From contig OZ024754.1 of the NCBI GenBank assembly GCA_964016885.1, forward strand, positions 23,808,001 to 23,872,000: a stretch of 64,000 nt of DNA, written 5' to 3'. The number at the start of each line of letters is the position of its first letter. Position 1 is the first letter of the stretch. Under the pieces are notes generated by a model that had not been told where the DNA came from, made no database searches, and saw only the letters and a program-made list of their open reading frames with translations. Shown here piece after piece: positions 5,952 to 35,308 of the stretch. Origin of the DNA: Eledone cirrhosa (taxonomy: Eukaryota). Made by a program: the position numbers and the translations under genes.

Positions 5952-6015
<64 letters not shown>

Positions 6016-6106
6016 CACATACTCAAACACATATACACAAACACATATACACACATATATATATATATACACATATACTTATATATAAATATACACATAA
6101 AAATCT

Positions 6107-7245: not shown

Positions 7246-7302
<57 letters not shown>

Positions 7303-7380
7303 TATCCGGGAGCTTCCAACAGTAATGGTTGCATTTTTTAAGGGTATGTCAATATTTATTTATAAAACTGATCTATATTG

Positions 7381-7445
7381 TATTTTATCTGATGAAAGCA
7401 CACCATAATTTAACGTGGTGTCCTTGAAATATGTATAATAAAATA
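7381..7445 (+). ncRNA. Minimal type I hammerhead ribozyme with a near-palindromic short helix III (HHR-3)
   Basis: Stem I TATTTTAT/ATAAAATA (8 bp, perfect); CTGATGA 7389-7395; stem II aagcacaccat/gtggtgtcctt (10 of 11 pairs); GAAA 7426-7429; helix III ATATGTAT; AUA triplet 7435-7437. Confidence 0.75.
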
Positions 7446-7513
7446 AATATGGTTTTATAAATAGTTTCCATTTGTAAATATCGTATATATATATATATAT
7501 ATGTATAGATAAC

Positions 7514-9094: not shown

Positions 9095-10273
9095 AAGAGC
9101 TGAGGTTCGTGCCTGCATGCCTTAAGTCGTCCATGCTGTGGCTCCAGGTGGAGAGTTTGTACCTGAGGACAAATATGCGTGCTCATTTGCATGGTGACAT
9201 GTCTGCAGCATTTGCTCAGAATATTTTAGCACTTGTTGAGGGCAATGTCCCTGCGGATGACAAGGGCGGCATAGCAATCGACTCACTGTGCAACATTGTG
9301 AGCAGCCCTTCTGACCTTTGGGAAGCAGTTTTTCCTAATGTCTCATCTAACTTTAAAAACCTCAATTAGCTCAGCGAAAGAGCCATCCTTGCTCGGAAAA
9401 ATACCATGGTTAATTTTATTAACGAGGAGCTGATTGAGAAGATTCCCGGTAAAGAACACATCTTCAAATCTATCGACCGGGCGTCAGACCCCGACGATAT
9501 CGTTAATTATCCGGTTGAGTTATTAAATTCCCTTGAGCCCGCAGGGCTCCCCTCACATTCTTAAGCTTAGGGTTGGCTGTCCCATTATGCTAATAAGGAA
9601 CTTGCGTCCACCAAAGCAGTGCAACGGCACTCGCATGGTCGTCAAGTCACTGACGCCCACTTGATTGAGGCCACCATTATAACGGAGTGCGGGAGAGGGG
9701 AGAATGTTTTCATTCCAAGGATGAACCTTTTCCCCTCGGCGTCAGATATCCCGTTCGATTTCCGGCGATCCCAATTCCCGGTGAGACCATTTTTTCCCAT
9801 GTCCATTAACAAGTCACAAGGGCAAACATTGTCGGTGGCGGTCATCCATTTGGGGGAGCCATGCTTCTCCCATGGCCAACTTTATGTTGCCTGTTCCCGC
9901 GTATGGAGCAGGACTGGACTTTTTGCTTACACTCCTCAAGGGATGACACGCAATATCGTCTACAATGAGGTGCTATAGATGTAGGAGCTATGCCGTCTGG
10001 AAAACTGGTAGGGTCACCCATGGCGGACAGATCTGACATGCAGCGGCATCAGGGCCACCATCTTGCAACTTTGTTCTACTAAATTTGCTATTGGAAGATT
10101 ATTAACCCATTATTGATTGTCCAAAACGCTAATTGGTTCGTAACTATTAATAACCGGTTCAACTGATTTATGCACTTAATTGATAAGCTTATGCGCTTTC
10201 AAGCTACGTTTACTTGTATGTAACTTTTCATAGCAAATGAACAAACCCGAGCAACGCCGGGCTAAACTGCTAG
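9093..10273 (+). mobile_element. Helitron 3' portion: PIF1 helicase C-terminal pseudogene (to 9978) and intact 3' terminus
   Basis: CLKSSMLW..LYLRTNMR, ERAILA, YPVELLNSL, CNGTR, FIPR, QFPVR..SINKSQGQTL, FSHGQLYVACSRV, TRNIVYNEVL*; hairpin CCCGagcaacgcCGGG 10246-10261 and CTAG|T 10270-10274. Confidence 0.93.
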
Positions 10274-10329
10274 TTATCAATAATGTTATATCTCGCAATG
10301 GCCATACTCGATAACGAGGGCGCAGCCAT

Positions 10330-12010
<1,681 letters not shown>

Positions 12011-12794
12011 GGGGTAGATAGAAAGACAGTTATACAGACAAGGACAGAGAGAGAGTGCTGTTTCTTAGGGTAATCCACCCACCCCATCATGTTTTCTATA
12101 AAACAATTACGCGTGTTGTTGTTTCTTTGATGCCGATAATACACATGTGTATCAAACAGTGATGATATGTCACTATAGAGAGGAAATGAATATTTACAAA
12201 GAAAAACTGAAATATAATTTTAAAAAATTTAACGAATATTTATTTTTTATCTTTTGGAGTCAGTCAACATTTACCGCCATGTTCTTTATTCTTTGTTAAC
12301 AATAAAAGAATCTAATTTATGACATACACCTCACTTCCGCGGGTAAACTTGATCGGACGAGCTCGAAGAAAACGGTTACGGGTGCTATCCGTTGCGGCTT
12401 GTGAATATTCCGTTTTCAAGACGGCTACGTACCGGCTTACCCTATGCGATGTCGGCTGTCTCCCTCTCGAACGATATGCCGACCTTTACTCGTCCGCCCC
12501 GCCTGCACGTTAACGCCCGTCTTCCGCCTCCGATGCGTGTTCCGCCGTTGATGCGTGCCGAGTCGGCCGCCACCGACCCGTGTGGCTGCTGGGGAATCCA
12601 GCCGACGACGACGCCCGAACGGCGAAGTGGTGTAGCTTCACCGACGACACGCCGCCTTCTATCTCTCTAGCCATTCAAGGCCCTGCATCGACAGCGGGAC
12701 TGAAGCCAACCCGCCGTCTAGGCGGTTCCGCAGCCGACCCGTGGCCGGCAGATCGCCCTCGGGGAATTAGCGACGATCGCGGAGGATGCAGCGC

Positions 12795-12845
12795 GGCCAG
12801 GGGGTCCTGTCTACTATATAGGGTAACCTCGGTCAGACGAGCTCA
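12795..12845 (+). promoter_or_regulatory. Putative RNA polymerase I gene promoter/initiation site (TATATAGGG at 12815-12823)
   Basis: ggccagggggtcctgtctacTATATAGGGtaa..ga..gagctc is a diverged paralogue of the spacer copies, but with its own upstream context and followed by a different ETS-like sequence; matches the TATATAGGG-type Pol I start motif of plants and arthropods. Confidence 0.6.
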
Positions 12846-13002
12846 GTGAACGGAAGGGTGCTAGCCGTTGCAGTTTTCGGTTTTCTGCGTAGGTTACGTG
12901 TTAGGCGTGCTCGGATACCCCATATGCGTCGTCGTCCTCGTCCGCGCCCCACCCGCACGTTACAGCCCGTACCCGCTGCCATCGACGAATTATTGCCTTT
13001 AA

Positions 13003-13515
13003 AGACCGCCGCCGCCGCCCGACTGGACCCACGAGAGAAGACGTTCGTTACCGCTGGAGCACCGCAAATTACTCCTCGGTTGACGCCAACAACGAACGCA
13101 TTCCCGCCCGGGCGACGTAAAATCTGTAGCCTTTTCGCCGAATGCCTCGCGCCGCCTTCTGCTCGGCTCTTTTTTTTTCCTTTGGTTTTCGTTCGCTCGA
13201 CGACTAGCCGCCTTTCGTGTTCCGCCTTTCGATTGCGCTTCCGTCGCGGCAAAAGAATTGCCTTTCCAGACCGCTGCCGACCCACCGGACCACGAGAGAA
13301 GACGTTCGTTACCGCTGAAGCACCGCAAATTACTCCTCGGTTGACGCCAAAAACAAGCGCCTTCCCACCCGGGCGGCGTAAAAGTCTGAAACCTTTTCGC
13401 CGAACGCCTCGCGCCGTCACCTCCTCCTCGCCTCTTTTTTTCTTTTCTTTAATTTTCGTTCGCTCGCCGACCCTCGGCCTCGACGACTAGCCGCCTTTCG
13501 TGTTCCGCCTTTCGA
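13003..13515 (+). repeat. Two-copy tandem repeat (~260-285 bp) inside the ETS-like segment
   Basis: cacgagagaagacgttcgttaccgctg..gcaccgcaaattactcctcggttgacgccaa at ~13030 and ~13291; cgacgactagccgcctttcgtgttccgcctttcga at 13198 and 13482. Confidence 0.9.
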
Positions 13516-13978
13516 ACGCCCTTCTGTCACAGCAGGAGATACGCGTCCGTCGTAATCGCCGTCGTTTTAACGCAGGAGCGCCGCCTAAATGCCCTGCTCC
13601 GCGCTTGACGACGATGTACGACGGCGACGACGTGCGCACTCTTCCTGCTGCGACGAAGGTTTCGGCTTTTCGTCGTGGACCCGGTCAGGCCATGCCGCTG
13701 ACCTCGCGTTGCGTCGCCACCGCCGCGGCGGGCTTGGGTTTAGCTGTAGCTACCCTCGTTTTGCCAACGGCGACGCGATATCGATGAAAGAGAGCGGCGT
13801 CGTCCCTCCCGAAGGGACACTGGCATCAAGTGTGCTTGCGCCGCCGTCGTCGTCGGTCGACGTCCAAGCTTTCCCCGGCATACCTACCCGTTAGGTTACG
13901 CGACGCCGCGCTTTTCGCTCTTGCGTTCGTCGTCGTCGTCGTCCGTTCGATTTGTCGAAAGAGATCGAGACGAAAAGG

Positions 13979-14082
13979 ATCGCTTGTATACGACTCGACT
14001 TGCCGCTCGGAGTGACGTGCTTAGTAGAGCAGCTACCACACTGCTATCTATTGAGTCTCTTCTCACGAACGATATGATCCGC
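13979..14082 (+). rRNA. 28S rRNA: 28S (LSU) rRNA 3'-terminal fragment (pseudogene)
   Basis: atcgcttgtatacgac...tcggagtgacgtgcttAGTAGAGCAGCTaccacaCTGCTATCTATTGAgtc aligns by eye with the conserved eukaryotic LSU 3' end (..gtagacgac..tcggggt..gtAGCAGAGCAGCT....CTGCGATCTATTGAaagtc). Boundaries are approximate. Confidence 0.8.
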
Positions 14083-14336
14083 CCCTCGAGGCGGCAGAAA
14101 AGGAAAAGAAAAGTCGAAAGATGGCGGCTGAAGTAATTGGAACGACCGAACGACCGACCGAACGAACGAACGAGAGATAGCAGCTACCGGGTTGGAACAC
14201 TGACACGGCTTTCTTTCGACGGGTTAGCGTAGCAACGACGACACACACGTACATACAACATACAACAAACAAGTCTGGTCCGTGCGGGCGTTAGACGCCG
14301 CCGCCGCCGATCGATCGGTTCGTTGTTTTACGAGTT

Positions 14337-14745
14337 CCGCCGCCGATCCGTTGTCCGTCTTCCATGTTAGTTTTACGTGCAGCTGTGCGTGTGACACTCT
14401 GTCGTCCGTCTTCCAAGTTAGTTTTACGTGTAGACGGCGTGTGTGTGTGTCTGTGTGTGTGTTACACGGCGCCGATCCGTCGTCCGTCTTCAAAGTTAGT
14501 TTTACCTGTAGACGGAGTGTGTGTGTGTCTGTGTGTGTTACACGCCGCCGATCCGTCGTCCGTCTTCCAAGTTAGTTATACGTGTAGACCGAGTGTGTGT
14601 GTGTCTGTGTGTGTTACACGCCGCCGATCCGTCGTCCGACTTCCTAGTTAGTTTTACGTGTAGACGGCGTGTGTGTGTGTCTGCGTGTGTTACACGCCGC
14701 CGATCCGTCGTCCGTCTTCCAAGTTAGCATTACGTGTAGACGGCG
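14337..14745 (+). repeat. IGS short subrepeats (76-bp period here, 66-bp period in the islands)
   Basis: acacgccgccgatccgtcgtccgtcttccaagttagttttacgtgtagacgg(tg)n at 14464, 14540, 14616 and 14692. Confidence 0.92.
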
Positions 14746-16321
14746 GGAAGGAATCCAACCCGCCGGCCAGGTGGTTCCGCCGCGGACCCGTACGTTTGCG
14801 AGTCGCTGCCGGGAAATGCAGACGGCATGGCGGCGTGTATACGCGAAACGACGCCTTCCGCCTTCCGCCTTCCACTCGGTAAATGTTCCTTTATTCGTTC
14901 ACGCCGCCCCGCTTCGAGCGCGAGAAAGAATACAATCCGCCGGCGAGGCGGTTCCGCCGCCGTCACGTAAGGTTGCGAGTAGGCGCCGGGGAAACCGACC
15001 GCTCACGGTTATATCTACTCGGACGGGGGATCCTGTCTATTATATAGGGTAAGCTTGATCGGACGAGCTCGAAGAAAACGGTTACGGGTACTATCCGTTG
15101 CGGCTTGTGAATATTCCGATTTTAAGACGGGTACGTGCCGGTTTACCCTATGCGATGTCGGCTGTCTCCGATATGGCGACCTGTACTCGTCCGCGCCGCC
15201 TGCACGTTAACGCCCGCCCTCCGCATCCCCCCCTTCTTACGCCTCTGATGCGTGTTCCGCCGTTGATGCGTGCCGAGTCGGCCGCCGCCGACCCATGTGG
15301 CTGCAGGGGAATCCAGCCGACGACGCCCTCCGAACGGCGGCGTGGTGTAGCTTCGTCGACGCGACGACAATACGCCGCCATCTAGCCTCCTTTGGGGAGG
15401 CCCCGTGTAGACGGTGGAAAGGAATCCAACCCGCCGCCTAGGCGGTTCTGCCGCCGACCCGTAAGATTGCGAGTCACTGCCAGGAAAGGCAGGCGGCAAG
15501 GCGGCGTGTATACGCGACAGGACGATTTCCGCCTTCCGCCTTCCGCCTTCCACCCGGTAAACATTCCTTTATTCGTCCACGCCTCCCCGCTTCGATCGCG
15601 AGAAAGAACGCAACCCGCCGGCGAGGCTGTTCCGCCGCCGACCCGTAAATTTCGAGTAGGCTCCGGGGAAACCGACCGCTCACGGTTGTATCTACTCGGC
15701 CAGGGGGTCTGTCTATTATATAGGGTCAGCTGGATCGGACGAGCTCGAAGAAAACGGTTACGGGTGCTATCCGTTGCGGCTTGTGAATATTCCGTTTTAA
15801 AGACGGGTACGTGCCGGCTTACCCTATGCGATGTCGGCTGTCTCCGTCTCGAACGATATGCCGACCTGTACTCGTCCGCGCCGCCTGCACGTTAATGCCC
15901 GTCCTCCGCCTTCGCCCCGTGTTCCGCCTCCGATGCGTGTTCCGCTGTTGATGCGTGCCGAGTCGGCCGCCGCCGACCCGTGTAACTGCAGGGAAATCCA
16001 GCCGCCGACGACGCCCGAACGGCGGCGTGGTGTAGCTTCGTCGACGCGACGACATCACACCGACATTTAGTCTCCTTCAGGGAGACCCCGTGTAGACGGC
16101 GGAAAGGAATCCAATCCGCCGCCTAGGCGGTTCCGCCGCAGGACCCGTACGTTTACGAGTCGCTGCCGGCAAAGGCAGACGGCAAGGCGGCGTGTATACG
16201 GGACACGACGCCTTCCGCCTTCCGCCTTCCACACGGTAAACGTTCCCTTATTCGACCACGCCTCCCCGCTTCGATCGCGAGAAAGAACGCAACCCACCGG
16301 CGAGGCGGTTCCGCCGCCGAC
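14740..16321 (+). repeat. IGS long subrepeats (~676 bp), each with a putative Pol I spacer promoter
   Basis: gtctatTATATAGGGt.agct.gatcggacgagctcgaagaaaacgg with TATATAGGG at 15041 and 15717; the downstream part also occurs at 12341. Confidence 0.85.
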
Positions 16322-19300
16322 CCTAACCCAAACCCTAACCCTGATCCTAACCATAACCCAAACCCTAACCCTAACTCTAAACCTAGCCCAAACCCAAACC
16401 CATGCCCTACCACTAACCCTAACCTTAACCCTAATGCTAACCCTTACACTAACCCTAAACCTAACCCTAACATTAACACTAACCCTAACCCAAACACAAA
16501 CCCAAAGCCTAACACTACCCAAAACCGAAACGCTAACCCTAACCCTAACCCTAATGCAAAAACTAACCCTAAGCCTAACTCAAATCTCAACACCAACCCT
16601 AACCCTACCCCTAACCCAACCCAAATCCTAACTCCAAACCTAACACTAACCGTAACCCTAAATTTAACCCCAACCCTAAACACTACGCTAACCCAAAACC
16701 CAACCCCAACCCCAACCCCAGACCTAATCCTAACCCTAAGCATAACACTAACACTAACACTAACCCTAACACTAACCGTAACCTTAACCCAAACCGTAAC
16801 CCTAACCCTAACTCTAACCCTAATCCAAACCCTAACCCTAACCCTAACCCTAACCCTAACCCTAACCCAAATCCAAACCCAAGCCCTAACACTAACCCTA
16901 ACCGAAACCCTAACACTAACCCTAACCCTAACCCTAACGCTAAGCCTAACCCTAATACTAACACAAACCTCAACTCCAACCCTAACCCTAACAATAACCC
17001 TAACCCAAACTCTAACCGAAACCCAAACCCTAACACTAACCCAAACCGAAATCCTAACCCTAACCGTAACGCAAACCCTAACCATAACCCTAACCTCAAC
17101 CTCACCACCAACCCTAACCCCAAATCTAACCACAACCCTAACCCAAACACTAACCCAAACCCTAACCCCAACCCTATCATTAACCCTAACCAAAACCCTA
17201 ACCTTAATCCTAATCTAACCCTAACACTAACCCTAATCCAAACCCTAACCCTAACACTAACCCTAACCCTAACCCTAACCCTAACCCAACACATAAGCCT
17301 AACCCTAACACAAACTCTAACCCTAACCCTAACCCCAAACCTAACCCCAAACCTAACACTAACCGTAACCCTAACCCTAACTCTAACCCCAACCCTAAAC
17401 CCTTCGCTAACCACAACCCCAACCCCAAACCGAAACCTAACCCTAAACGTAAGGCTAACCCTAACCATAACGCTAGCACTAACCTTAACTCTAACCCTAA
17501 CCCTAACCCAAACCATAACCCTAATCCTGACCTTAACCTTAACCCTAACCCAAACCCTAACCCTAACCCTAACTCTAACCCTAACCCTAATACTAAGGCT
17601 AACCCAAACCCAAACCCAAAACTTAACACTAACCCAAACCGAAACACTAATCCTAACCCTAACACTAACGCTAACCCTAACCATAACCCTAACCCAAACG
17701 TCAACACCAACCCTAACCCTAAGCCAAACCCTAACCCTAACACTAACCCTAACGCTAACCTAAATCATAACCCTAACACAAAACCTAAACCTAACCCTAA
17801 CACTAATCCTAATCCTAACCCTAACCCTAACATAAACACTAACCCTAAACATAACGCTAACCCTAACCCAAACACAAACCCAAAAATTAACACAAACCCT
17901 AATCCTAACCCTAACACTAACCCTATCCCTAACCCTAACCCCAAACCTAAACCTAAAACTAGCACTAACCCCAACACCAAACCCAACCCCACCTAACCCT
18001 AACCCTAACCCGAACCCTAACCCAAAACCTAACCCTAATCCTAACCCTAATCCTAACCCTAATCCTAACCCTAACCCTAACCGTAAACCTACCCTAACAC
18101 AAACACTGACACTAACCCTAACCCTAACCCTAACCCAAACCCAAAACCTAACCCTAACACTAACTCTAACCCTAACCCAAACTCTAACCCTATCCCTATG
18201 CCTAACCCCAACCCTAACTCCAAACCTAACACTAACCGTAACTCTAACCCTAACTCTAGCCCCAACCCTAAACCCTACGCTAACCCCAAACCCAACACCA
18301 ACCCCCATCCCAAACCTAATCCTAACCCTAAACCTAACACTAACCATAACACTAACACGAATCCTAACCCTAACCCTAACCCAACCCAAACCCTAACTTC
18401 AAACCTAACACTAACCATAACCCTAAACCTAACTCTAACACCAAAACTAAACCCTACGCTAACCCCAAACCCAACCCCAACCCCAACCCCAACCCAAAAC
18501 CTAACCCTAACCCTAACCCTAACACAAACACTAACCCTAACCCTAACTCTAACCCTAACCCAAAACCTAACCCTAAACTAACCCTAACCCTAACCCAAAC
18601 CCAAACCCAAACACTAACACTAACCCAAACCGAAACCCTAACTATAACCCTAACCCTAACCCTAACGCTAACCCTAACCCTAACACTAACATAAAACTCA
18701 ACATCAACCCTAACCCTAACACTAACCCTAACCCTAACCCAAACCTCAACACCAACCCTAACCCCAAAACTAACTCCAACCCTAACCCCAACACTAACCC
18801 TAACCCTAACCCCAACCCTAAGCCTAACCCTAACCAAAACCCTAACCATAACCCTGACCCTAATCCAAACCCTAACCTTAACACTAACCCTAACCCTAAC
18901 ACTAACCTGAACCCAACACATGAACCTAACCCTAACACTAACCCTAACGCAAATCCTAACCCTAACCCTAACCCTAACCCTACATCTAACCCCAACTCTA
19001 ACCCCAAACCTAACATTAACCGTAACCCTAACCCTAACTCTAACCCCAACCCTAAACTCTTCGTAACCACAACCCCAACCCCAACACGAAACCTAAACGT
19101 AAACGTAATCCTAATCCTAACCATAACACTAACAGTAACCTTAACTCTAACCCTAACCCTAACCCAAACCTTAACCCTAATTCTAACCCTAACCCTAAAG
19201 CTAACCCAAACCCAAACCAAATACCTAACACTAACCCAAACCGAAACAGTAACCCTAACACTAACGCTAACACTAACCAGAACCGTAACCCAAACCTCAA

Positions 19301-22300
19301 CCCTAACACTAACCCTAACCCTAACCCTAACCCTAACCCAAACTCTAACCCTAACACTAACCCTAACCCAAACCCTAACCCAAACCCTAAACCTAACCCT
19401 AACACTAACCCTAACCCTAACCCAAACCCTAACCCAAACCCTAAACCTAACCCTAACACTAAACATAATCCTAACCCTAACCCTAACATAAACACTAACC
19501 CTAAACATAACCCTAACCCTAACCCAAACACAAACCCAAACCCTTACACAAACCCTAACCCTAACCCTAACACTAACCCTATCCCTAACCCTAACCCTAT
19601 CCCTAACCCTGACCCAATACCTAACCCTAACCCTAACCCTAAACCCAAACCTCAACACCAACCCTAACCTTAACCCTAACCCAATCCAAACCCTAACCCT
19701 AACCTTAACGCTAACCCAAATTCTAACCAAATCTAACTCTAACCCTAACCCTAATCCTAAACCTAACCCCAAACCTAACCCCGACCCTAAACCCAAACCT
19801 AACCCTAACCCTAACACTAACCCCAGCACCAACCCAAACTCCACCTAACCCTAACCCTAACCCTAACGCGAACCCTAACCCAAACCCTAACCCTAACCCT
19901 AACCCTAACAATAGCCCAAACCCAAAACCTAACCCTAAGCCTAACTCTGACCATAAACCAAACTCTAACCCTATCCCTTAACATAACCCCAACACTAACT
20001 CCAAACCTAACACTAACCGCAACCCTAACCCTAACTCTAACCCCAACACTAAACCCTACGCTAACCCCAAACCCAACCCCAACCCCAAACCTAATCCTAA
20101 CCCTAAACCTAACACTATCCATAACACTAACACTAACACTAAACCTAACTCTAACCCTAACCCTAACCCTAACCCTAACACTACACCTAACCATTACCCT
20201 AACACAAACCCAAACCCAAACCCTAACTCTAGCCCAAACCGAAACCCTAACCCTAACCCTAACCCTGATGAAAAAATTAACCCTAACCCTAACCCAAACC
20301 TCAACACCAACCCTAACCCTAACCGTAACCCAATCCAAACCCTAACTCCAAACCTAACACTAACCATAACACTAACACTAAACCCTACGCTAACCCCATA
20401 CCCACGTCAACCCCACCCCCAAACCTAATGCTAACCCTAAACCTAACACTAACCATAAAACTAACACTAACACTAACCCAAACTCTAAACGTATCTCTAA
20501 CCCAAACCTTAACCCTAACTCTAACCCTAACCCAAACCCTAACCCTAACCCTAACCCTAATGCAAACACTAACCCTAACCCAGACCTCAACGCCAACCCT
20601 AACCCCAACCCTAACGCATATCCTAACCCTAACCCTAACCCAAACCTCAATACCAACCCTAACCCCAAACCGAATCCCAACCCTAACCCCAAAATCTAAC
20701 CCTAGCCCAAACCCTATCCCTAATCCTAGCCGTAAACCTAACCCTAACCTAATCTCTAACCCAAACACTAACCCAAACCCTAACCCTAACCCAAATCCTA
20801 ACCCTAACGCAAACACTAACCCAAACCCCGAACCTAACACTAACCGTAACCCGAACCCTAACTCCAGCCCCTACACTAACCCCTACGCTAAGCCCAAACC
20901 CAACCCCAACCCCAACCTCAAACCTAACCCTAACCCTAACCCTAACAGTAACACTCACCCTAACTCTCACCCTAACTCTAACCCTAACCCTAACCCAAAC
21001 TCTAACCATAACCATAACCCAAAACCTAACTTAACCCCAAACCTAACCCTAACCATAACCCTAACACCAAACCTAAACCTAACCCTAACCCCAACACTAA
21101 CCCCAACCCTAATCCCAACTTAACCACAAACCTAACGCCAACCCTAACACCAGCCCTTAGCCTAATCCTAACCAAAATCCTAACCCTAATCCTAACCCTA
21201 ACCCTAACCCTAACCCTAATCCAAACCCTAACCCTAACACTAACTCTAACACTAACCCTAACCCTAACCCTAACCCTAAACCTCACCCAAAACATAACCC
21301 TAACCCTAACACTAACTTTAACCCAAACCCTAACCCTAACACTAACACTAACCCTAACCCTAACCCCAACCCTAACCCCAAACCTAAAACTAACCGTAAC
21401 CCTAACACTAACACTAACCCCAACCCTAAACCCTTCGTTAACCACAACCCCAAACCCAACCCGAAACCTGACCCTAAACGTAATCCTAACCCTAACCATA
21501 ACACTAACACTAACCTTAACTCTAAACCTAACCCTAACCCAAAGCCTAACCCTTATCCTAACCCTAACCCTAACTCTAACCCAAACCCTAACCCTAACCC
21601 TAAAGCTAACCCAAACCGAAACCCAAAACCTAACACTAACCCAAACCGAAACACTAACCCTAACCCTAATACTAACGCTAACCCTAACCATAACCCTAAC
21701 CCAAACCTCAACACCAACCCTAACCCTAACCCTAACCCTAAACCCAAACTCTAACCCTAACCCTAACCCTAACCCAAACCCTAACCCTAACACTGACCCT
21801 AACGCTAACCCAAACCCTAACCCAAACCCTAATTTAACCCTAACACTAAACCTAATCCTAACCTTAACCCTAACATAAACACTAACCCTAAACATAACCA
21901 TAACCCTAACCCAAACACAAACTCAAACCTTAACACAAACCCTAACCTTAACCCTAACCCTAACGCAAACCCTAACCCTAACCCTAACCCAAACGTCAAC
22001 ACCAACCCTAACCCCAAACCTAACCCCAACCCTAAACCCAAAATCTAATCCTAACCCAAACCTAACCCTAACACAAACCCGAACTCTAACCCTAAACCTA
22101 ACCCTATCCATAATCCTAGCCGTAAACCTAACCCTAACCCAATCCCTAACCCAAACACTAACCTTAACCCTAACTCTAACCCTAACCCTAACCCTAACCC
22201 TAACCCTAACCCTAACCCCAACCCAAAACCTAACCCTAACACTAAAACTAACCCTAACCCTAACCCTAACACTAACACTCACCCTAACTCTAACCCTAAC

Positions 22301-24691
22301 CCTAACCCAAACTCTAACCCTAATCCTAACCCTAACCCTAACTCTAACCCAAACCCTAACCCTAACGCTAACCCTAACCCTAACCCTAAAGCTAACCCAA
22401 ACCGAAACCCAAAACCTAACACTAACCCAAACCGAAACACTAACCCTAACCCTAATACTAACGCTAACCCTAACCATAACCCTAACCCAAACCTCAACAC
22501 CAACCCTAACCCTAACCCTAACCCTAAACCCAAACTCTAACCCTAACCCTAACCCTAACCCAAACCCTAACCCTAACACTGACCCTAACGGTAACCCAAA
22601 CCGTAACCCAAACCCTAAATTTAACCCTAACACTAAACCTAATCCTAACCTTAACCCTAACATAAACACTAACCCTAAACATAACCATAACCCTAACCCA
22701 AACACAAACTCAAACCCTAACACAAACCCTAACCTTAACCCTAACCCTAACGCAAACCCTAACCCTAACCCTAACCCAAACGTCAACACCAACCCTAACC
22801 CCAAACCTAACCCCAACCCTAACCCCAAAATCTAATCCTAACCCAAACCTAACCCTAACACAAACCCGAACTCTAACCCTAACCCTAACCCTATCCATAA
22901 TCCTAGCCGTAAACCTAACCCTAACCCAATCCCTAACCCAAACACTAACCTTAACCCTAACCCTAACCCAAATCCTAACCCTAACGCAAATACTAACCCA
23001 AACCCCAAACCGAACCCTAACTCCAGCCCCTACTCTAACCTCTACGCTAACCCCAACCACAACCCCAACCCCAACCCCAACCCCAAACCTAACCCTAACA
23101 CTAAAACTGACCCTAACCCTAACCCTAACACTAACACTCACCCTAACTCTAACCCTAACACTAACCCAAACTCTAACCATAACCATAACCCAAACCCTAA
23201 CCTAACCCCAAACCTAACCCTAACCATAACCCTAACCACAACCCTAAACCTAACCCTAACCCCAACCTAACCCTAACCCTAATCCCAACTCTAATCCCAA
23301 CACTAACCCCAACCCTAACCCAAACTTAACCCCAACCCTAACCCCAACCCTAACCCCAACCCTTACCCTAACCCTAACCAAAACCCTAACCCTAATCCTA
23401 ACCCTAAGCCTAACCTTAACCCTAATCCAAACCCTAACCCTAACACTAACCCTAACCCTGACCCTAATCCTAACCCTAGCCCTAACCCTAACCCAAAACA
23501 TAACCCTAACCCTAACACTAACTCTAACCCAAAACCTAACCCTAACCCTAACCCTAAGCCTAACCCTAACCCCAACCCTAACCCAAAATCTAACACTAAC
23601 GTAACCCTAACACTAACACTAACCCCAACCCTAAACCCTTCGGTAAACACAACCCCAGCCCCAACCCGAAACCTAACCCTAAACGTAATCCTAACCCTAA
23701 CCATAACACTAACACTAACCTTAACTCTAACCCTAACCCTAACCCAAACCCTAACCCTAATCCTAGCCCTAACCTAACCCTAACCCAAACCCTAACCCTA
23801 ACCCTAACCCTAAAGTTAACCCAAACCCAAACCCAAAACCTAACACTAACCCAGGCTGAAACACTAACCCTAACCCTAATACTAACGCTAACCCTAAACA
23901 TAACCCTAACCCAAACTTCAACACCAACCCTAACCCTAAACCCAACCCTAACCCAAACTCTAACCCTAACCATAACCCAAACTCTAACCCTAACCCTAAC
24001 CCTAACCCTGACCCAAACCCTAACCCTAGCACTAACCCTAACGCTAACCCAAACCCTAACCCAAACCCTAAATCTAACCCTAACACTAAACCTAATCCTA
24101 ACCCTAACCCTAACATAAACACTAACCCTAAACATAACCCTGACCCTAACCCAAAATCAACCTCAAACCCTAACACAAACCATAACCCTAACCCTAACCC
24201 TAACCCTAACCCTAACCCAAATCCAAACCCAAACCCTAACACTAGCCCAAACCGAAACACTAACCCTAACCCTAACCCTAAGGCAAACAGTAACCCTAAC
24301 CCTAATCCTAACCCTAACCCTAACCGTAAACCTAACCCTAACCCAAATCCTAACCCTAACCCTAAGCCTAACGCAAACCCAAAACCTAACCCTAAACCTA
24401 ACTCTAACCCTACCCCATCTCTAAACCTATCCTTAACCCTAACCCCAACCCTAACTCCAAACCTAACACTAACCATAACTCTAACTCTAACCCTAACCGT
24501 AAACCTAACCCTAAACCAAACCCTAACCCTAACCCTAACCCTAACCCTAACCCAAATCCTCACCCTAACCCTAACCCTAATCCAAACCCCAAACCTAACA
24601 CTAACCGTAATCCTAACCCTAATTCTAACCCCAAACCTAACCCCCACGCTAACCCCAACCCCAACCCCAACCCCAAACTTAACTCTAACCC
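16322..24691 (-). repeat. Degenerate telomeric (TTAGGG)n array 1 (CCCTAA on +)
   Basis: CCCTAA with single-base variants (CACTAA, CCCAAA, ACCTAA, CTCTAA, CCGTAA, CCATAA); internal ~786-bp tandem duplication near 21.5-23 kb. Confidence 0.97.
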
Positions 24692-25536
24692 TTTTACGAA
24701 TTCCGACGCCACCGCTGCTACTGCAACCCACCAACCATTCCGCGCGCCAACTTTTACGACGAGTCCAGTCGCTCGATCGCTCGGCCAGTTTGCGAGGTTC
24801 CACCAACGACCCTCAAAGTCGCTTTCGATGAGCATCGAATGCGAGAGTTCGCGGTAAATGCAAAAGAGCCTTGGGATCCGTCTCCTTGTTCGAGAGGCGC
24901 GTGTGTCTTTCACGCCGCCGATCCATCGTCCGTCTTCTGAGTTAGTTTACGTGCGGCTGTGCGTGTGACACTCCGTCGTGTATCTTCCAAGTTAGTTTTG
25001 CGTGTCTCTATGTGTTGCACGCCGCCGCCGATCCGACGTCTGTCTTCCAAGTTAGTTTTACGTGCGGCTGTGCGTGTAACACTCTGTCATCCGTCTTCCT
25101 AGTTTTACGTGTAGACGACGTGTGTGTGTCTATGTGTGTTACACGCCGACAATCCGTCGTCCGTCTTCCAAGTTAGTTTTACATGTAGACGGCGTGTGTG
25201 TGTTACACGCCGCCGATCCGTCGTCCGTCTTCCAAGTTAGTTTTACGTGTAGACGGAGTCTGTGTGTGTTACACGCCGCCAATCCGTCGTCTGTCTTCCA
25301 AGTTAGTTTTACGTGTAGACGGCGGAAAAGAATCCAACCCGCCGCCTAAGCGGTTCCGCCGCAGACCCGTACGTTTACGAGTCGCTGCCGGGAAAGGCAG
25401 ACGGCAAGGCGGCGTGTATACGCGACAAGACGCCTTCCGCCTTCCATCCGGTAAACGTTCCCTTATTCGTCCACGCCTCCACGCATCGATCGCGAGAAAG
25501 AACGCAACCCGCCGGCGAGGTGATTCCGCCGCCGAC
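24692..25536 (+). repeat. IGS island 1: head, short subrepeats and partial long repeat; no promoter motif
   Basis: Starts ttttacgaattccg, ends ccgccgccgac; homologous to 14326-14960. Confidence 0.9.
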
Positions 25537-28500
25537 TCTAACCCAAACCCTAACCTATCCCTAACCCTAACCCAAACCGTAACCCTAACCCTAACACAAA
25601 TTTCAACACCAACCCTAGCCCTAACCCTAACCCAAACTCCAACCCTAAACCTAACCATAACCCGAACCCAACCGTAGCATTAACACTAAACCTAACCCTC
25701 AACACCAACTCTAAGACTAAACCTAACCCAAACCCCAAGCGTAACCCTAACCCTAACCCTGACCTTAACCCTAACCCTTACCCTAAACCAAACCCTAACC
25801 CAGACCCTAACACTAACGCTAACCATAACCTTAATCCTAACCCTATCCCTAACCCAAACCCAAACCCCAATCCTAACCCTAATCCTAACCCTAATTCTAA
25901 CCGTTAACCTAACCCTAACACAACCCCTAACCCTAACCCTAACCCTAACCCTAACCCAAATCCTAACCCTAACACTAACACTAATCCAAACCCCAAACCT
26001 AACACCAACCATAACCCTAACTCCCACCCCAACACCAACCCCAACCCCAACCCCAATCCAAACACTAACCCTAACCCTAACACTAACACTAACCCCAACC
26101 ACAACCCCAACCCCAACCCCAATCCTAACCCTAAACCTAACCCTAACCCTAACCCTAACACTAACACTAACCCTATCTCTAACCCTAAACCTAACCCAAA
26201 CACTAAACCTAACCCTAACCCTAACCTTAACCCTAACCCTAATCTTTATCCTAACCCTAAATCTAACCCTAACACTAACCCTAACCCTAACCCTAACCGT
26301 AAACCTAAACCTAACCCTAACCCTAACCCTAACCCTTGCCCTAACCCTAACCCTAACACTAACCCTAACACTAGACCAAAGCCAAACCCAGACCAAAACA
26401 CTAATCCTAAACCTAACCCAAAACCAAACCCTCAGCCTAACCTAACCCAGGGCTAACCCTAACAATAACTCTAACCATAACTCTAAGCCCAACATTAACC
26501 CCAACCCTAACCCAACCCTAACCCCAACCCTAACCCTAACCCTAACCAAAACCCTAACCCTAACACTAACCCTAGCACTAATCCTAACCCTAAACCTAAC
26601 CCTAACCCCAACCCTAATACTAACCCAAGCCCTGACCCCAACCCTAACCCTAACCCTAAATCTAACCCTAACCTTAAACATAACCCTAACCCTAACCCGA
26701 ACCTAACCCTAATACTAACCCTAACCCTAAACCTGACCCCAAAACTAACCCTAACCCTAACCCAAACCCTAACACTAACCATAACCCTAACTCTAACACT
26801 AACCCTAACACTAAACCAAACCCAAACCCAAACCCAAACACTAACCCTAATCCTAAACCTAACACAAAACCAAACCCTAACCCTAAACCTAACCCTAAAC
26901 CTAACCCAAACTCAAACCCTAACCCTAACCCTAACCCGAACCCTAACCATAACCCTAACCCAAACCCTAACCCTAACTTTAACCCTAACCCTTGCTTTAA
27001 ACCAAACCCTAACCCAAACCCTAACACTAACACTAACCCAAACACTAATCCTAACCCTAACCCTAACATAAACACTAACCCTAACCCTAGCCCTAACCCT
27101 AACCCTAACTCTAACACTAAACCTATCCCTAACCCTAACCCAAACCCTAACCCTAAACCTATCCCTAACACAAACCCAAACCCCATTACTAACCCTAAAC
27201 CTAACCCTAACCCTCACCCAAACCCTAACCCTAACACAAACCCAAACCCTAACCCTAAGCCTAAACCTAATCCTAACACTAATTCTAACCGTAAACCTAA
27301 ACCTAACACAAACCCTAACCCTAACCCTAACCCTAACCCTAATCCAAACCCCAAACCTAACACTGACCGTAATTCTAACTCCCGCCCCAAAACCAACCCG
27401 AACCCCAACACTAACCCTAACCCTAACACTAACACTAACCCCAACCACAAACCCAACCCCAACCCCAATCCTAACCCTAACCCTAACCCTAACCCTAACA
27501 CTAACACTAACCCTAATTCTAATCCTAAACCTAACCCAAACACTAACCCTAACCCTAACCTTAACCCTAATCCTAACACTAACCCTAACCCTAACCCTAA
27601 CCCTAACCCTAATCCTAACCGTAAACCTAAACCTAACCCTAACCCTAACCCTAGCCCTAAACCTAACCCTAACACTAATCCTAACACTAAACCAAAGCCA
27701 AACCCAAACCAAAACACTAATCCTAAACCTAACACAAAACCAAACCCTAACCCTAACCTAACCCCAAACCTAACCCTAACCATAACTCTAACCACAACAC
27801 TAACCCCAACACTAACCCCCACCCTAACCCCAAACCTAACCCCAACCCTAATCTAACCCTAACAAAAACACTAACCCTTACCCTAACACTAATCGTAACC
27901 CTAACCCTAACCCTAACCCTATCCCTAAATCTAACCCTAAATCTAACCCTAACCCTAAACCTAAACATAACACTAACCCTAACCCGAACCCTAACCCTAA
28001 ACCTAAGCCTAACCATATCCCAAACACAAACCCTAACCCTAAAAGTAACCCTAACACTAACCCAAGCCCTAACACAAACCATAACCCTAAACCTAACACT
28101 AGCCCTAACACTAAGCCAAACCCAAACCCAAACACTAATCCTAACCCTAAACCTAACCCAAAATCAAACCCTAACCCTAAATCTAACCCTAACCCTAACC
28201 CAAACCCAAACCATAACCCTAACACTAACCCTAATCTAACCCTAACCCTAATCCAAAACCTAACCCTAAACCTAACACTAGCCCTAACCCTAACCCTAAC
28301 CCAAAACATAACCCTAAACCTAACCTTAACTCTAACCCTAACCGAAACCCTAACCCAAACCCGAACCACAACCCAAACACTAACTCTAACGCTAACCCAA
28401 AACCTAACCCTAACCCTAACCCTAACCCAAAACCTATCCCTAAACCTAATCTCAACCCTAACACCAAACCTAACACTAACCGTAACCGTAACCCTAACTC

Positions 28501-28566
28501 TAACCTCAACCCTAACCCCCACGCTAACCCCTACCCCAACCCCAAACCCAAACCTAACTCTAACCC
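25537..28566 (-). repeat. Degenerate telomeric array 2
   Basis: As array 1; its variant pattern recurs at ~48530-51470. Confidence 0.97.
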
Positions 28567-30065
28567 TTTTACGAGTTCCGACGCCACCGCTGCTACTGCA
28601 ACCCACCAACCAGTGGGCGCGCCAACTTTTACGACGAGTCCAGTCGCTCGATCGCTCGGCCAGTTTGCGAGGTTCCACCAATGACCCTCAAAGTCGCTTT
28701 CGATGAGCATCGAAAGCGAGAGTTCGCGGTAAATGCAATAGAGCCTTGGGATCCGTCTCCTGGCTCGAGAGGCGCGTGTGTCTTTCACGCCGCCGATCTA
28801 TCGTCCGTCTTCCGAGTTAGTTTACGTGCGGCTGTGCGTGTGACACTCCGTCGTGTATCTTCCAAGTTAGTTTTGCGTGTCTCTATGTGTTGCACGCCGC
28901 CGCCGATCCGACGTCTGTCTTCCAAGTTAGTTTTACGTGCGGCTGTGCGTGTAACACTCTGTCGTCCGTCTTCCTAGTTTTACGTGTAGACGACGTGTGT
29001 GTGTCTATGTGTGTTACACGCCGACAATCCGTCGTCCGTCTTCCAAGTTAGTTTTACATGTAGACGGCGTGTGTGTGTTACACGCCGCCGATCCGTCGTC
29101 CGTCTTCCAAGTTAGTTTTACGTGTAGACGGATTCTGTGTGTGTTACACGCCGCCAATCGGTCGTCTGTCTTCCAAGTTAGTTTTACGTGTAGCCGGCGG
29201 GAAGGAATACAATCCGTCGGCTAGGCGGTTCCGCCGCCGACCCGTACGCTTGGGAGTAGGCGCCGGGAAAGGCAGGTGGCAAGGTGGCGTGTATGCGCGA
29301 CACGACGCACTCCGCCTTCCACCCACTAAACGTTCCCTTATTCGTCCACCCCTCTCGCTTCGGTAGCGAGAAGGAACGCAATCCGCCGGCGAGGGGGTTC
29401 CGCCGCCGACCCGTAAAGTTGCGTGTAGGCAACGAGGAAACCGACCGCTCACGGTTATATCTCCTCGGTCAGGGGATCCTGTCTATTATATAGGGTAAGC
29501 TTGATCGGACGAGCTCGAAGAAAACGGTTACGGGTGCTATCCGTTGCGGCTTATGAATATTCCGTTTTCAAGACGGGTACGTGCCGGCTTACACTATGCG
29601 ATGTCGGCTGTCTCCGCCTCGAATGATATGCCGACCTGTACTCGTCCGCGCCGCCTGCACGTTAACGCCCGTGTTCCGCCTCCGATGCGTGTTCCGCTGT
29701 TGATGCGTCCCGAGTCGGCCGCCGCCGATCCGTGTGGCTGCAAGGGAATCCAGCCGACGACGACCCCCGAACGGCGGCGTGGTGAAGCTTCTTAGACGCG
29801 ACGACAACACGCCGATATTTAGCCTCCTTCGGGGAGACCTCGTGTAGACGGCGGAAAAGAATCCAACCCGCCGCCTAAGCGGTTCCGCCGCAGACCCGTA
29901 CGTTTACGAGTCGCTGCAGGGAAAGGCAGACGGCAAGGCGGCGTGTATACGCGAAAAGACGCCTTCCGCCTTCCATCCGGTAAACGTTCCCTTATTCGTC
30001 TATGCCTCCACGCTTCGATCGCGAGAAAGAACGCAACCCGCCGGCCAGGCGATTCCGCCGCCGAC
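28567..30065 (+). repeat. IGS island 2 with putative Pol I spacer promoter (TATATAGGG 29487-29495)
   Basis: Same ends as island 1 plus one extra long subrepeat. Confidence 0.9.
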
Positions 30066-33000
30066 TCTAACCCTATCCCTAACCCTATCCCTAACCCTAA
30101 CACAAACCCTAACCCTAACCCTAACCCTGACCCAAACCCAAACCCATACCCTAACACTAACCCAAAAGGAAACCTTAACCGCAAGCCTAACGTTAAACCT
30201 AACACTAACCCTAACACAAATTTCAATACCAACCCTAGCCCTAACCCTAACCCTAACCCTAACCCTAACCCGAACCCTAACCCTAAACTCAACTCTCACA
30301 TAACACTAACCCCAACCCTAACCCTAACCCTAATCCTAACCCTAACACTAACCCTAGCCCTAACCCTAACCCAAAACATAACCCTAACCCTAAAACTAAC
30401 CCTAACCCAAAACCTAACCCTAACCCTAACCCTAACCCCAACCCTAACCGCAAACCTAACACTAACGTAACCCTAACCCTAACACTAACCCAACCCTAAA
30501 CCCTTCGCTAAACACAACCCCAACCCCAACCCGAAACTTAACCCTAAACGTAATCCTAACCCTAACCATAACATTAACACTAACCTTAACTCTAACCCTA
30601 ATCCTAACCCAAACCCTAACCCTAATCCTAACCCTAACCCTAACCCTAACCCAAACCCTAACCCTAACCCTAACACTAACGCTAACCCTAAAGTTAAAGC
30701 AAACCCAAACCCAAAACCTAGCACTAACCCAAGCTGAAACACTAACCCTAACCCTAAAACTAACGCTAACCCTAAACATAACCCTAACCCAAACCTCAAC
30801 ACCAACCCTAACCCTAAACCCAACCCTAACCCAAACTCTAACCCTAACCCTAACCCAAACTCTAACCCTAACCCTAACCCTAACCCAAATCCAAACCCTA
30901 ACCCAAACCCTAAAGCTAAACCAAACCCTAACCCAAACCCTAAATCTAACCCTAACACTAAACCTAATCCTAACCCTAACCCTAACATAAACACTAACCC
31001 TAAACATAACCCTAACCCTAACCCAAAATCAAACTCAAACCCTAACACAAACCATAACCATAACCCTAACCCTAACCCTAACCCTAACCCTAACCCAAAT
31101 CCAAACCCTAACACTAGCCCGAACCGAAACACTAACCCTAACCCTAACCCTAATGCAAACAGTAACCCTAACCCAAACATCAACACGAATCCTAACCCTA
31201 ACCCTAACCCTAACCCTAACCCAAACCCCAACCCCAACACCACCTAACCCTAACCCTAATCCGAACCCTAACCCAAAGCCTGACCCTAACACAAACCCAA
31301 ACCCTAACCCTAACCCTAATCCTAACCCTAACCCTAACCGTAAACCTAACCCTAACCCAAAATCAAACTCAAACCCTAACACAAACCATAACCCTAACCC
31401 TAACCCGAACCCTAACCCTAAACTCAACTCTCACACAACACTAACCCCAACCCTAACCCTAACCCTAATCCTAACCCTAACACTAACCCTAGCCCTAACC
31501 CTAACCCAAAACATAACCCTAACCCTAAAACTAACCCTAACCCAAAACCTAACCCTAACCCTAACCCTAACCCCAACCCTAACCGCAAACCTAACACTAA
31601 CGTAACCCTAACCCTAACACTAACCCAACCCTAAACCCTTCGCTAAACACAACCCCAACCCCAACCCGAAACCTAACCCTAAACGTAATCCTAACCCTAA
31701 CCATAACATTAACACTAACCTTAACTCTAACCCTAATCCTAACCCAAACCCTAACCCTAATCCTAACCCTAACCCTAACCCTAACCAAACCCTAACCCTA
31801 ACACTAACGCTAACCCTAAAGTTAAAGCAAACCCAAACCCAAAACCTAGCACTAACCCAAGCTGAAACACTAACCCTAACCCTAAAACTAACGCTAACCC
31901 TAAACATAACCCTAACCCAAACCTCAACACCAACCCTAACCCTAAACCCAACCCTAACCCAAACTCTAACCCTAACCCTAACCCAAACTCTAACCCTAAC
32001 CCTAACCCTAACCCAAATCCAAACCCTAACCCAAACCCTAAAGCTAAACCAAACCGTAACCCAAACCCTAAATCTAACCCTAACACTAAACCTAATCCTA
32101 ACACTAACCCTAACATAAACACTAACCCTAAACATAACCCTAACCCTAACCCAAAATCAAACTCAAACCCTAACACAAACCATAACCATAACCCTAACCC
32201 TAACCCTAACCCTAACCCTAACCCAAATCCAAATCCAAACCCTAACACTAGCCCGAACCGAAACACTAACCCTAACCCTAACCCTAATGCAAACAGTAAC
32301 CCTAACCCAAACATCAACACGAATCCTAACCCTAACCCTAACCCTAACCCTAACCCAAACCCCAACCCCAACACCACCTAACCCTAACCCTAATCCGAAC
32401 CCTAACCCAAAGCCTAACCCTAACACAAACCCAAACCCTAACCCTAACCCTAATCCTAACCCTAACCCTAACCGTAAACCTAACCCTAACCCAAAATCAA
32501 ACTCAAACCCTAACACAAACCATAACCCTAACCCTAACCCTAACCCTAACCCTAACCCTAACCCAAATCCAAACCCAAACCCTAACACTAGCCCGAACCG
32601 AAACACTAACCCTAAACCTAACCCTAATGCAAACAGTAACCCTAACCCAGACATCAACACGAACCCTAACCCTAACGCTAACCCCAACCCCAACCCCAAC
32701 ACCACCTAACCCTAACCCTAATCCGAACCCTAACCCTAACTCTAACCCAAACGCAAACCCAAAACCTAACCCTAAACCTAACTCTAACCCTACACCAAAC
32801 TCTAAACCTATCCCTAACCCTAACCCCAACCCTAACTCCAAACCTAACACTAACCGTAACCCTAACTTTAACTCTAACCCCAACCCTAAACACTACGCTA
32901 ACCTCAAACCCAACTCCAACCTCAACCCCAAATCTAATCCTAACCCTAAACGTAACATTAACCATAATACTAACACTAACACAAACCCTAACACTAACCG

Positions 33001-33737
33001 TAACCCTAACCCAAACCCTAACCCTAACCCTAACCCTAACCCTAACCCAAATCCAAACCCAAACACTAACACAAACCCAAACCGGAACCCTAACAATAAC
33101 CCTAACCCTAACCCTAACGCTAACCCTAATCCTAACCCTAACACAAACCACAACACCAACCCTAACCCTAACCGTAACCCTAACCCTAACACAAACCCTA
33201 AACCTAACCCTAACAATAACCCTATGCCTAACCCACACCCAAACCCAAACCCTATCCCTAACCGAAACCGAAACACTAAGCCTAACCCTAACCCTAACGC
33301 AAACCCTAACCCTAACCCTAACCCAAACCTCAACATCAACCCTAACCCTAACCCTAACCATAACCCTAACCCTAACCGAAACCCTAAACCTAACCCTGAC
33401 CCTAACCCAAACCCTAACCCAAATTTAACCCCAACCCTAACCCCAACGCTAAGCCTAACACTAACCCTAACCCTAACCCTAACCCAAACCCTAACCATAA
33501 CACAAACCCAAACACTAACCCTAACCCTAATCCTAACTCTAACCCTAACCGTAAACCTAACTCTAAACCAAACCCTAACCCTAACCCTAACCCTAACCCA
33601 AATCCTAACCCTAACCCTAACCCTAATCCAAACCCCAAACCTAACACTAACTGTAACCCTAACCCTAATTATAACCCCAACCCTAACCCCCACGCTAAAC
33701 CCAACCCCAACCCCAACCCCAAACCTAACTCTATCCC
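30066..33737 (-). repeat. Degenerate telomeric array 3
   Basis: Contains a ~1135-bp tandem duplication (~30380 vs ~31515). Confidence 0.97.
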
Positions 33738-35308
33738 TTTTACGAGTTCCGCCGCCACCGCTGCTACTGCTACCCACCAACCAGTCCGCGCGCCAACTTT
33801 TACGACGAGTTCAGTCGCTCGATCGCTCGGCCAGTTTGCGAGGTTCCACCAACGACCCGCAAAGTCGCTTTCGATGAACATCGAAAGCGAGAGTTCACGG
33901 TAAATGCAATAGAGCCTTGGGATCCGTCTCCTTGTTCGAGAGGCGAGGGTGTCTTTCACGCCGCCGATCCATCGTCCGTCTTCCGAGTTAGTTTACGTGC
34001 GGCTGTGCGTGTGACACTCCGTCGTTTATCTTCCAAGTTAGTTTTGCGTGTCTCTATGTGTTGCACGCCGCCGCCGATCCGTCGTCTGTCTTCCAAGTTA
34101 GTTTTACGTGCTGCTGTGCGTGTAACACTCTGTCGTCCGTCTTCCCAGTTTTACGTGTAGACGACGTGTGTGTGTCTATGTGTGTTAGACGCCGACAATC
34201 CGTCATCCGACTTCGAAGTTAGTTTTACATGTAGACGGTGTGTATGTGTTACACGCCGCCGATCCGTCGTCCGTCTTCCAAGTTAGTTTTACGTGTAGAC
34301 GGGGTCTGTGTGTGTTACACGCCGCCGATCCGTCGTCCGTCTTCCAAGTTAGTTTTACGTGTAGACGGGGTCTGTGTGTGTTACACGCCGCCGATCCGTC
34401 GTCCGTCTTCCAAGTTAGTTTTACGTGTAGCCGGCGGGAAGGAATACAATCCGCCGGATAGGCGGTTCCGCCTCCGACCCGTACGCTTGCGAGTAGGCGC
34501 CGGGAAAGGCAGGCGGCAAGGTGGCGAGTATGCGCGACACGACGCACTCCGCCTTCCGCCTTCCACCCAGTAAACGTTCCCTTATTCGTCCACGCCTCCC
34601 GCTTCGATAGCGAGAAAGAACGCAATCCGCCGGCGAGGGGGTTCCGCCGCCAACCCGTAAAGTTGCGTGTAGGCAACGAGGAAACCGACCGCTCACGGTT
34701 ATATCTCCTCGGTCAGGGGATCCTGTCTATTATATAGGGTAAGCTTGATCGGACGAGCTCGAAGAAAACGGTTACGGGTGCTATCCGTTGCGGCTCATGA
34801 ATATTCCGTTTACAAGACGGGTACGTGCCGGCTTACCCTATGCGATGTCGGCTGTCTCCGCCACGAATGATATGCCGAACTGTACTCGTCCGCGCCGCCT
34901 GCACGTTAACGCCGGTGTTCCGCCTCCGATGCGAGTTCCGCTGTTGATGCGTCCCGAGTCGGCCGCCGCCGACCCATGTGGCTGCAGGGGAATCCAGCCG
35001 ACGACGACCCCGAACGGCGGCGTGGTGAAGCTTCTTAGACGCGACGACAACACGCCGACATTTAGCCTCCTTCGGGGAGACCTCGTGTAGACGGCGGAAA
35101 GGAATCCAACCCGCCGCCTAGGTGGTTCCGCCGCAGACCCGTACGTTTGCGAGTCGCTGCCGGGAAAGGCAAACGGCAAGGCGGCGTGTATACGCGACAA
35201 GAGGCCTTCCGCCTTCCATCCGGTAAATGTTCCCTTATTCGTCCACGCCTCCACGCATCAATCGCGAGAAAGAACGCAACCCGCCGGCGAGGCGATTCCG
35301 CCGCCGAC
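33738..35308 (+). repeat. IGS island 3 with putative Pol I spacer promoter (TATATAGGG 34731-34739)
   Basis: Same ends; near-identical to island 4 at offset 8767. Confidence 0.9.

Follow-up and report, generated by a model that had tools for sequence, protein, structure and literature searches.

Spacer islands of ribosomal DNA in a degenerate telomere-like array of the octopod Eledone cirrhosa: a junction probably made by recombination into an old satellite

Telomere-type repeats joined to ribosomal DNA (rDNA) have been described in several settings, which we take here from excerpts of the sources cited. At capped nucleolus organiser regions (NORs), for instance NOR2 and NOR4 of Arabidopsis (PMC10619934), the class D subtelomeres of Chlamydomonas (PMC8287924) and TEL1 of Magnaporthe (PMC7367193), the join is terminal and lies next to arrays of rRNA genes. 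The Sultan and Suber elements of Chlamydomonas and the Y′ arrays of yeast multiply through unequal exchange between sister chromatids or through break-induced replication (PMC8287924), and the interstitial repeats of Arabidopsis have been argued to expand in situ as mosaic satellites that need not be fossils of telomeres (bioRxiv 10.64898/2026.05.10.723265). For cephalopods, TTAGGG is given as the sole experimentally determined telomere motif, from one species (PMC13218726), and we found no cephalopod composite of telomere repeat and rDNA spacer in the literature, as covered by titles and the starts of abstracts, with most subscription papers lying outside the search. Here we describe such a composite in 64,000 nucleotides of contig OZ024754.1 of Eledone cirrhosa (GCA_964016885.1, positions 23,808,001 to 23,872,000), the whole stretch analysed being called the window below. 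In it a degenerate (CCCTAA)n array is interrupted by four islands of spacer-like sequence that all open at the same join, CCC|TTTTACGA. This join probably goes back to non-homologous recombination of rDNA spacer into a telomere-like satellite, old by that time, and not to telomerase; it was then copied.

The CCCTAA-type block covers 37 kb (16321-53566, + strand) and is internal, with transposon-rich DNA on its left and a different, inverted satellite on its right. It is made up of the arrays A0 (16321-24691; 15.1% substituted), A1 (25537-28566), A2 (30066-33737), A3 (35309-42504) and A4 (44076-53566), which measure 8.4, 3.0, 3.7, 7.2 and 9.5 kb and have between them the four spacer islands I1 (24692-25536), I2 (28567-30065), I3 (33738-35308) and I4 (42505-44075), all on the + strand; no island stands at the end of A4. 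Across the five arrays 14.5-15.3% of bases are substituted and perfect hexamers account for 33-39% per array (1814 perfect CCCTAA tokens). The longest perfect runs have 5-9 hexamers, and those of A3 (9) and A4 (7) are located at the right junction, not the left, where the last 18 hexamers before an island include 1-3 perfect ones. Hexamer positions 1-4 account for most variants in 16321-53566, as C>A, T>A and T>C, and changes at the two A positions are rare; these counts are inflated by amplification. Block duplications appear as diagonals at ~0.8, 1.1, 7.9, 8.8 and 23 kb, and a recent one of ~8.8 kb accounts for I4, which is 99.0% identical to I3.

The initial annotation had placed the start of every island at ccc followed by the motif, and this was found exactly at 24692, 28567, 33738 and 42505, with CCC before all four, so that its reading of the junction on the minus strand, with the polarity that telomerase would create, also stands. 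At each island the G-rich strand extends, in its 5′ to 3′ direction, outward from the break, as telomerase gives. In the window TTTTACGARTTCCG matches without mismatch at these four positions and at 14326, and a search with up to two mismatches gave no sixth match there (shuffles had a mean of 1.02 at this setting). The array reads AACCC before I1 and I2 and ATCCC before I3 and I4, and exact copies of the full 19-mer are confined to 14326, I3 and I4. Repeat and island overlap by 1 nt, and no further bases are common with the spacer copy that begins at 14326 (copy N). Behind the 19-nt motif all four islands carry 209 nt that are missing from N and are bounded by CGCCGCC direct repeats; the 202 nt of missing sequence that were compared with the window matched nothing outside the islands. 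Both halves of the motif recur in the spacer (TTTTACG 30 times, TTCCGCCGCC 14 times), so the homology of N and the islands at the motif, judged on few unique bases, is likely and not overwhelming. A second TTTTACG-type tract lies 60 nt inside each island (24692-24770 in I1), and the tracts are possibly paired terminator-like elements. In other eukaryotes the T-tract zone behind 28S is a break-prone terminator or fork barrier, as it may be here too.

A single event, amplified afterwards, lies behind all four left junctions. Over the 111 nt directly ahead of the islands the flanks are homologous, with 1-12 differences per pair, and the sequences that follow the islands are homologous too. Together with the block duplications and the 99% identity of I3 and I4, these flanks bear out the earlier proposal that a junction of telomere repeat and intergenic spacer had been multiplied.

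That the motif lies about 245 bp downstream of 28S also proved correct. Positions 3298-3399 of 3401 of the Rfam LSU_rRNA_eukarya model (RF02543) align to 13977-14080 (+), ~104 nt of the 28S 3′ terminus, at 34.2 bits, which is below the gathering score of 50, and at E 1.2e-6, as obtained in a 421-nt search; its terminal helix is still paired in the Rfam alignment. It is followed by 245 nt (14081-14325, +) that resemble a 3′ external transcribed spacer and occur in no island, and then by the motif at 14326. The place described as the native context turned out to be an internally deleted rDNA unit without 18S, 5.8S and nearly all of 28S. At gathering level Rfam gave no match of any kind in the whole 64 kb, and E-value scans of 7500-17000 and 12780-13990 gave no 18S, 5.8S or other 28S; microsatellite matches to ‘miRNA’ models in the E-value scan were regarded as chance.

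The deleted unit reads, in order, a promoter-like motif, 1156 nt resembling an external transcribed spacer, and the last 104 nt of 28S (12821-14080). The motif, TATATAGGG (12815-12823, +), resembles start sites of RNA polymerase I (Pol I) and is a putative gene promoter, by the similarity of the spacer copies around it and by published motifs; the GC-rich segment behind it (12821-13976, +), in which a ~265-nt direct repeat lies, would be the 5′ external transcribed spacer from its position. To the left stands a truncated spacer subrepeat, U (12341-12820, +), placed by a display of the boundary and by blastn of 12341-12742 against 15047 and 15723 (81-83%). Copy N itself (14326-16320, +) consists of the 19-nt motif, 76-nt subrepeats (14338-14745) and ~680-nt subrepeats that carry start-like motifs, at 15041 and 15717. 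I2 and I3 have such motifs at 29487 and 34731; I1 lacks both the motif and a full 680-nt subrepeat. Start-like motifs of this kind resemble those of plants and arthropods in the published excerpts (PMC6589552, PMC2590618), a likeness by which their promoter function is putative. As in an rDNA intergenic spacer, the sequence follows a 28S 3′ end and has tandem subrepeats with duplicated promoter motifs, which supports the assignment of the islands to rDNA spacer. The observed/expected ratio of CpG is ~1.5 for the islands, against 0.75 for the left-hand DNA.

The order of array and junction can be approached through a pattern of variant hexamers next to the islands. The flank of I1 (24581-24691, +) is one copy of this landmark. 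With a profile of the island flank, 25 sites scored above the best of 50 token shuffles, namely the four flanks and 21 island-free sites; the latter collapse to 15 when near-duplicates are merged, and they are kin by descent, the counts showing homology and not independent trials. A CCCCAA run closed by the same A-starting hexamer lies 15 nt from the junction in 4/4 flanks and occurs in 14 of the 15 collapsed sites (background 0.128). Non-canonical bases common to at least three flanks number 15, and nine of them are found in 16-21 of the 21 island-free sites. Beyond the position of the junction, the island-free sites go on sharing variants (CCATAA in 8/15, CTCTAA in 9/15, ACGTAA in 6/15). Part of A1 has an island-free homologue in A4, at an offset of ~22.7-23.0 kb, that parts from A1 just before the landmark, and in a tree rooted on the perfect repeat three flanks group with the island-free sites 20886, 37124 and 44974 (support 88/91, not starred), a nesting that did not reach significance. 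A shared pattern at island-free sites is what recombination into an existing satellite would lead one to expect, and the favoured, if not proven, reading is that the junction cuts mid-monomer through a variant pattern that was already present.

Divergence suggests the same order. The flanks differ from the perfect repeat at 20-22 of 111 nt (18-20%), and the island subrepeats differ at 11-16 of ~299 nt (~4-5%) from the majority of four spacer rows, these being U, two N copies and I2, so that one row is I2's own. The flanks are thus 3-5 times as far from the perfect repeat as the islands are from other spacer copies. In pairwise comparison the island subrepeats lie 7-9.6% from U and N, and N differs from the islands by 6.8-8.2%; three flanks stand at 8.8-9.6% from the nearest landmark without an island, a distance close enough to that between N and the islands to fit one duplication event. 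Since their recent duplication, I3 and I4 have come to differ at 16 of 1569 nt (1.0%) in the island and at 6/888, 9/1024 and 5/758 in the flanking arrays (0.7-0.9%), that is, array and island mutated at similar recent rates. The older pair, I1 against I3 or I4, has 23-26 differences in 600 nt of island and 6-7 in 111 nt of flank, a flank-to-island ratio of ~1.5 (111 nt) to 2 (250 nt). Even with an array changing twice as fast, a repeat older than the junction is favoured, unless gene conversion kept the islands young.

A second junction leads from spacer back into array. In N (16319-16323, +) and in 4/4 islands the spacer breaks off at one and the same base and the array then begins over an ACCC overlap. 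On the minus strand this reads telomere repeat and then spacer, the opposite of telomerase addition and an order that telomerase is unable to make. Tandem duplication of a spacer-plus-array unit, in turn, forces the ‘telomerase’ polarity on the join from array to spacer, so that this polarity, of which there are in any case just two to choose from, carries little weight.

The order of events, unlike the architecture, the single origin of the left junction, the shared landmark, the second junction and the block duplications, has to be reconstructed. In the course that we propose, a CCCTAA-type tract would first have become internal, decayed by ~15% and been amplified in blocks. A broken rDNA unit would then have been joined to this array at the right junction, through the ACCC overlap, giving N followed by array. 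A break or template switch within one array monomer would next have rejoined the T-tract 245 nt behind 28S, with spacer and array duplicated as a tandem unit; in a variant that we include here, a broken rDNA end would have captured an existing degenerate subtelomere, with an identical junction as the result. Finally, unequal exchange in the hexamers and in the spacer subrepeats would have multiplied the unit and altered the lengths of islands and arrays. The composite would then likely be a non-coding, heterochromatic satellite that caps no chromosome end where it now stands.

Several observations weigh against this course. The polarity of the left junction and its 1-nt overlap fit telomerase. 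The array side of N's right junction resembles that of I2 weakly, with 11 of 5228 windows reaching an equal score and negative log-odds. The 250-nt flanks of I1 and of I3 and I4 differ by 7-9%, and the flank of I2 is 10-11% from the other flanks at an island distance of only 2.3-4.7%; the I2 flank appears to be recombinant, and the array may more generally change about twice as fast as the island, or recombine. U, N and the islands may have a common history or be renewed from active rDNA by gene conversion, with a flattened clock as the result. Lastly, a single clade of island-free sites is compatible with the approximately unbiased (AU) test (p 0.139), so that the direction, array before junction, is favoured rather than proven.

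In the interpretation of the initial annotation, with further steps added here, an rDNA break at the T-tract was healed by telomerase; decay of the proximal repeats and their duplication as far as the junction followed, and later the unit of telomere repeat and spacer was amplified and came to lie in the interior. This we consider unlikely. The polarity and the overlap of the left junction are as it would have them, and spacer-capped rDNA ends are known in Chlamydomonas (PMC8287924) and Magnaporthe (PMC7367193), at least in the portions of these sources that bear on the point. The AU test also allows the flank to be the source of the island-free copies. The overlap decides nothing, however, as short seeds are frequent in true healing (PMC7367193, PMC2246262), with seeds of 1-4 nt in 19 of 24 de novo telomere events of Magnaporthe (PMC7367193), as some suspected human cases have no seed at all (bioRxiv 10.1101/2022.10.31.514589), and as chance alone can give an overlap of 1 nt in as many as 25% of cases (PMC2246262). 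Healing would further require that an early duplication stopped in the last 15 nt before the junction, the shared pattern running that far, and a decay of 18-20% in the flank while the island changed by ~4-5%. It would also require a second junction of opposite polarity and, for N, another recombination. A healed end should in its expected form show a near-perfect terminal (CCCTAA)n joined to TTTTACGAGTTCCG and leading into intact 18S-28S. In the window the array is internal, and its decay is neither private to the junction lineage nor matched by the age of the islands. What had been called telomere repeat is of CCCTAA type and is at the same time ~15% substituted, with 33-39% of hexamers perfect in any array. 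The claim that telomerase made the junction finds no support in view of the pre-existing variant pattern, the three- to fivefold greater divergence of the flanks and the second, opposite junction at every island, and the parallel with a telomere-capped NOR falls with the internal position and with a window of 64 kb that holds 104 nt of 28S and no intact unit.

A different origin would be retro-insertion, in which the islands are 5′-truncated reverse transcripts of spacer RNA, target-primed into telomere-like repeats, and the block 12341-16320 is the full-length copy of a transcript from a Pol I spacer promoter, primed from the G-strand. The polarity of the right junction and its ACCC overlap are those of priming from a G-strand 3′ end, and remnants of non-LTR (long terminal repeat) retrotransposons lie nearby. 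The rDNA block moreover starts at 12341 with GGG, at the base right after the TATATA of the start-like motif in intact copies; a breakpoint within 2 nt of that motif in a ~680-nt subrepeat has a prior of roughly 1%, by our own, post hoc estimate, and the start site is itself read from the motif only. A ACTCTAACCC-like 10-mer is present on both sides of the islands (24682-24691 and 25535-25544, with equivalents at I2-I4); in I1 and I2 the two copies are exact. As a target-site duplication it is poorly placed: this 10-mer occurs 83 times within the arrays, the ACCCTAACCC carried by N is a match to the spacer itself, and the right flanks do not continue the left flanks at island-free sites, for which reason a clean insertion with target duplication was rejected. 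A poly(A) is lacking, and no target duplication was seen for the sequence that ends at 12340, of which the 10- and 12-mers are unique on the + strand and the 8-mer recurs at 8993. Loss of 18S-28S would take an extra template jump. Taken together, retro-insertion seems to us distinctly improbable.

We hold it to be improbable to a like degree that functional rDNA units of this species regularly carry island and array within their intergenic spacer, the window being a decayed unit at the edge of a NOR. N does give 28S end, spacer and array all in the same direction, both the start-like motifs and the CpG content have been kept, and telomere-like sequence within spacer (PMC8287924) and interstitial telomeric sequences interspersed with rDNA (PMC6410037) are reported in the excerpts at hand; the idea is also compatible with a recombination origin of the junction. 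It does not sit well with the absence of any 18S within the 37 kb of array, with array lengths from 3.0 to 9.5 kb and copies differing by up to 9%, or with an array that ends in an unrelated inverted satellite. A chimera or false expansion in the assembly, which a highly repetitive region invites, is scarcely credible, as all five spacer copies and all the arrays show differences of 1-9% whose variants nest consistently, a pattern that the mis-assembly of one copy would not yield.

The DNA to the left (1-12340) is AT-rich and full of microsatellites and transposons. A frame at 7995-9182 (-) looks like a non-LTR retrotransposon, its matches carrying PF00078 and PF13966; Argonauta hians proteins of 63-64% identity are among the best of 51 matches, and the other named top match is labelled as bacterial metagenome. 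Fragments at 9170-9978 (+), 1-1900 (-) and 5083-5736 (+) resemble Helitron PIF1 helicase/Rep and the endonuclease end, of restriction type, of a CRE-like element. Pfam gave no family in any of the three transposon-like frames searched. Just left of the rDNA boundary, 12270-12340 (-) holds what we presume to be ETS-like and YY1-like motifs with an ATG, and might be a putative remnant of a Pol II promoter. On the other side, 53567-64000 (-) is a different satellite with periods of 32, 6 and 26 nt, G-rich on the + strand, inverted relative to the array and continuing beyond the window. At 53566|53567 the C-rich array thus meets the G-rich 26/32-nt satellite in inverted orientation, which differs from that of an end-to-end fusion; this satellite is made of hexamer-like units and is perhaps an older telomere-derived one.

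For the study of such joins, the locus indicates that junction polarity alone is no ground for telomerase healing and that the variant pattern of the repeats can date an array against its junction. If healing or retro-insertion were nevertheless true, the window would hold a sequence-level fossil of an interaction between rDNA and chromosome ends in cephalopods, in the latter case with spacer RNA that had been copied into the DNA of telomeres and multiplied as a composite satellite. On the reading preferred here it offers, in an octopod, a base-level example of telomere-type repeat mixed with rDNA, a situation known mostly from chromosome staining.

The closest likeness is to heterochromatic interstitial telomeric sequences (het-ITS), some of them interspersed with rDNA or NORs (PMC6410037, cited here and below from excerpts). 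Like these, the locus has a large internal telomere-type block that is associated with rDNA, is flanked by transposons and another satellite, and has been amplified in blocks or by unequal exchange; the difference is that here the arrangement is read base by base and from sequence alone, and that spacer fragments, not whole units, are interspersed. The capped NORs of Arabidopsis (PMC10619934) and Chlamydomonas (PMC8287924) likewise join telomere-type repeat to spacer, and Magnaporthe TEL1 does so behind the large-subunit gene (PMC7367193). Unlike them, the array in the window is internal and 15% degenerate, has the junction four times and a second junction of opposite polarity, and adjoins no intact gene. 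The Sultan, Suber and Y′ arrays (PMC8287924) share tandem non-telomeric units separated by telomere-type sequence, whereas here the unit is rDNA spacer and what lies between the units is degenerate repeat of higher order, kilobases long. A similar picture emerges for the MoTeR arrays of telomere-inserting retrotransposons (PMC7367193), in which elements are separated by interstitial telomere tracts, but the islands described here are spacer DNA in which no retrotransposon features are evident, and no clean target site results when their flanks are put together. Finally, the interstitial telomeric repeat domains of Arabidopsis (bioRxiv 10.64898/2026.05.10.723265) resemble the arrays in their degenerate telomere motif, higher-order structure and block duplications, and differ from them in that no centromere-satellite monomer was seen in E. 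cirrhosa, where no search aimed at one was made, and in that its array is purely hexameric.

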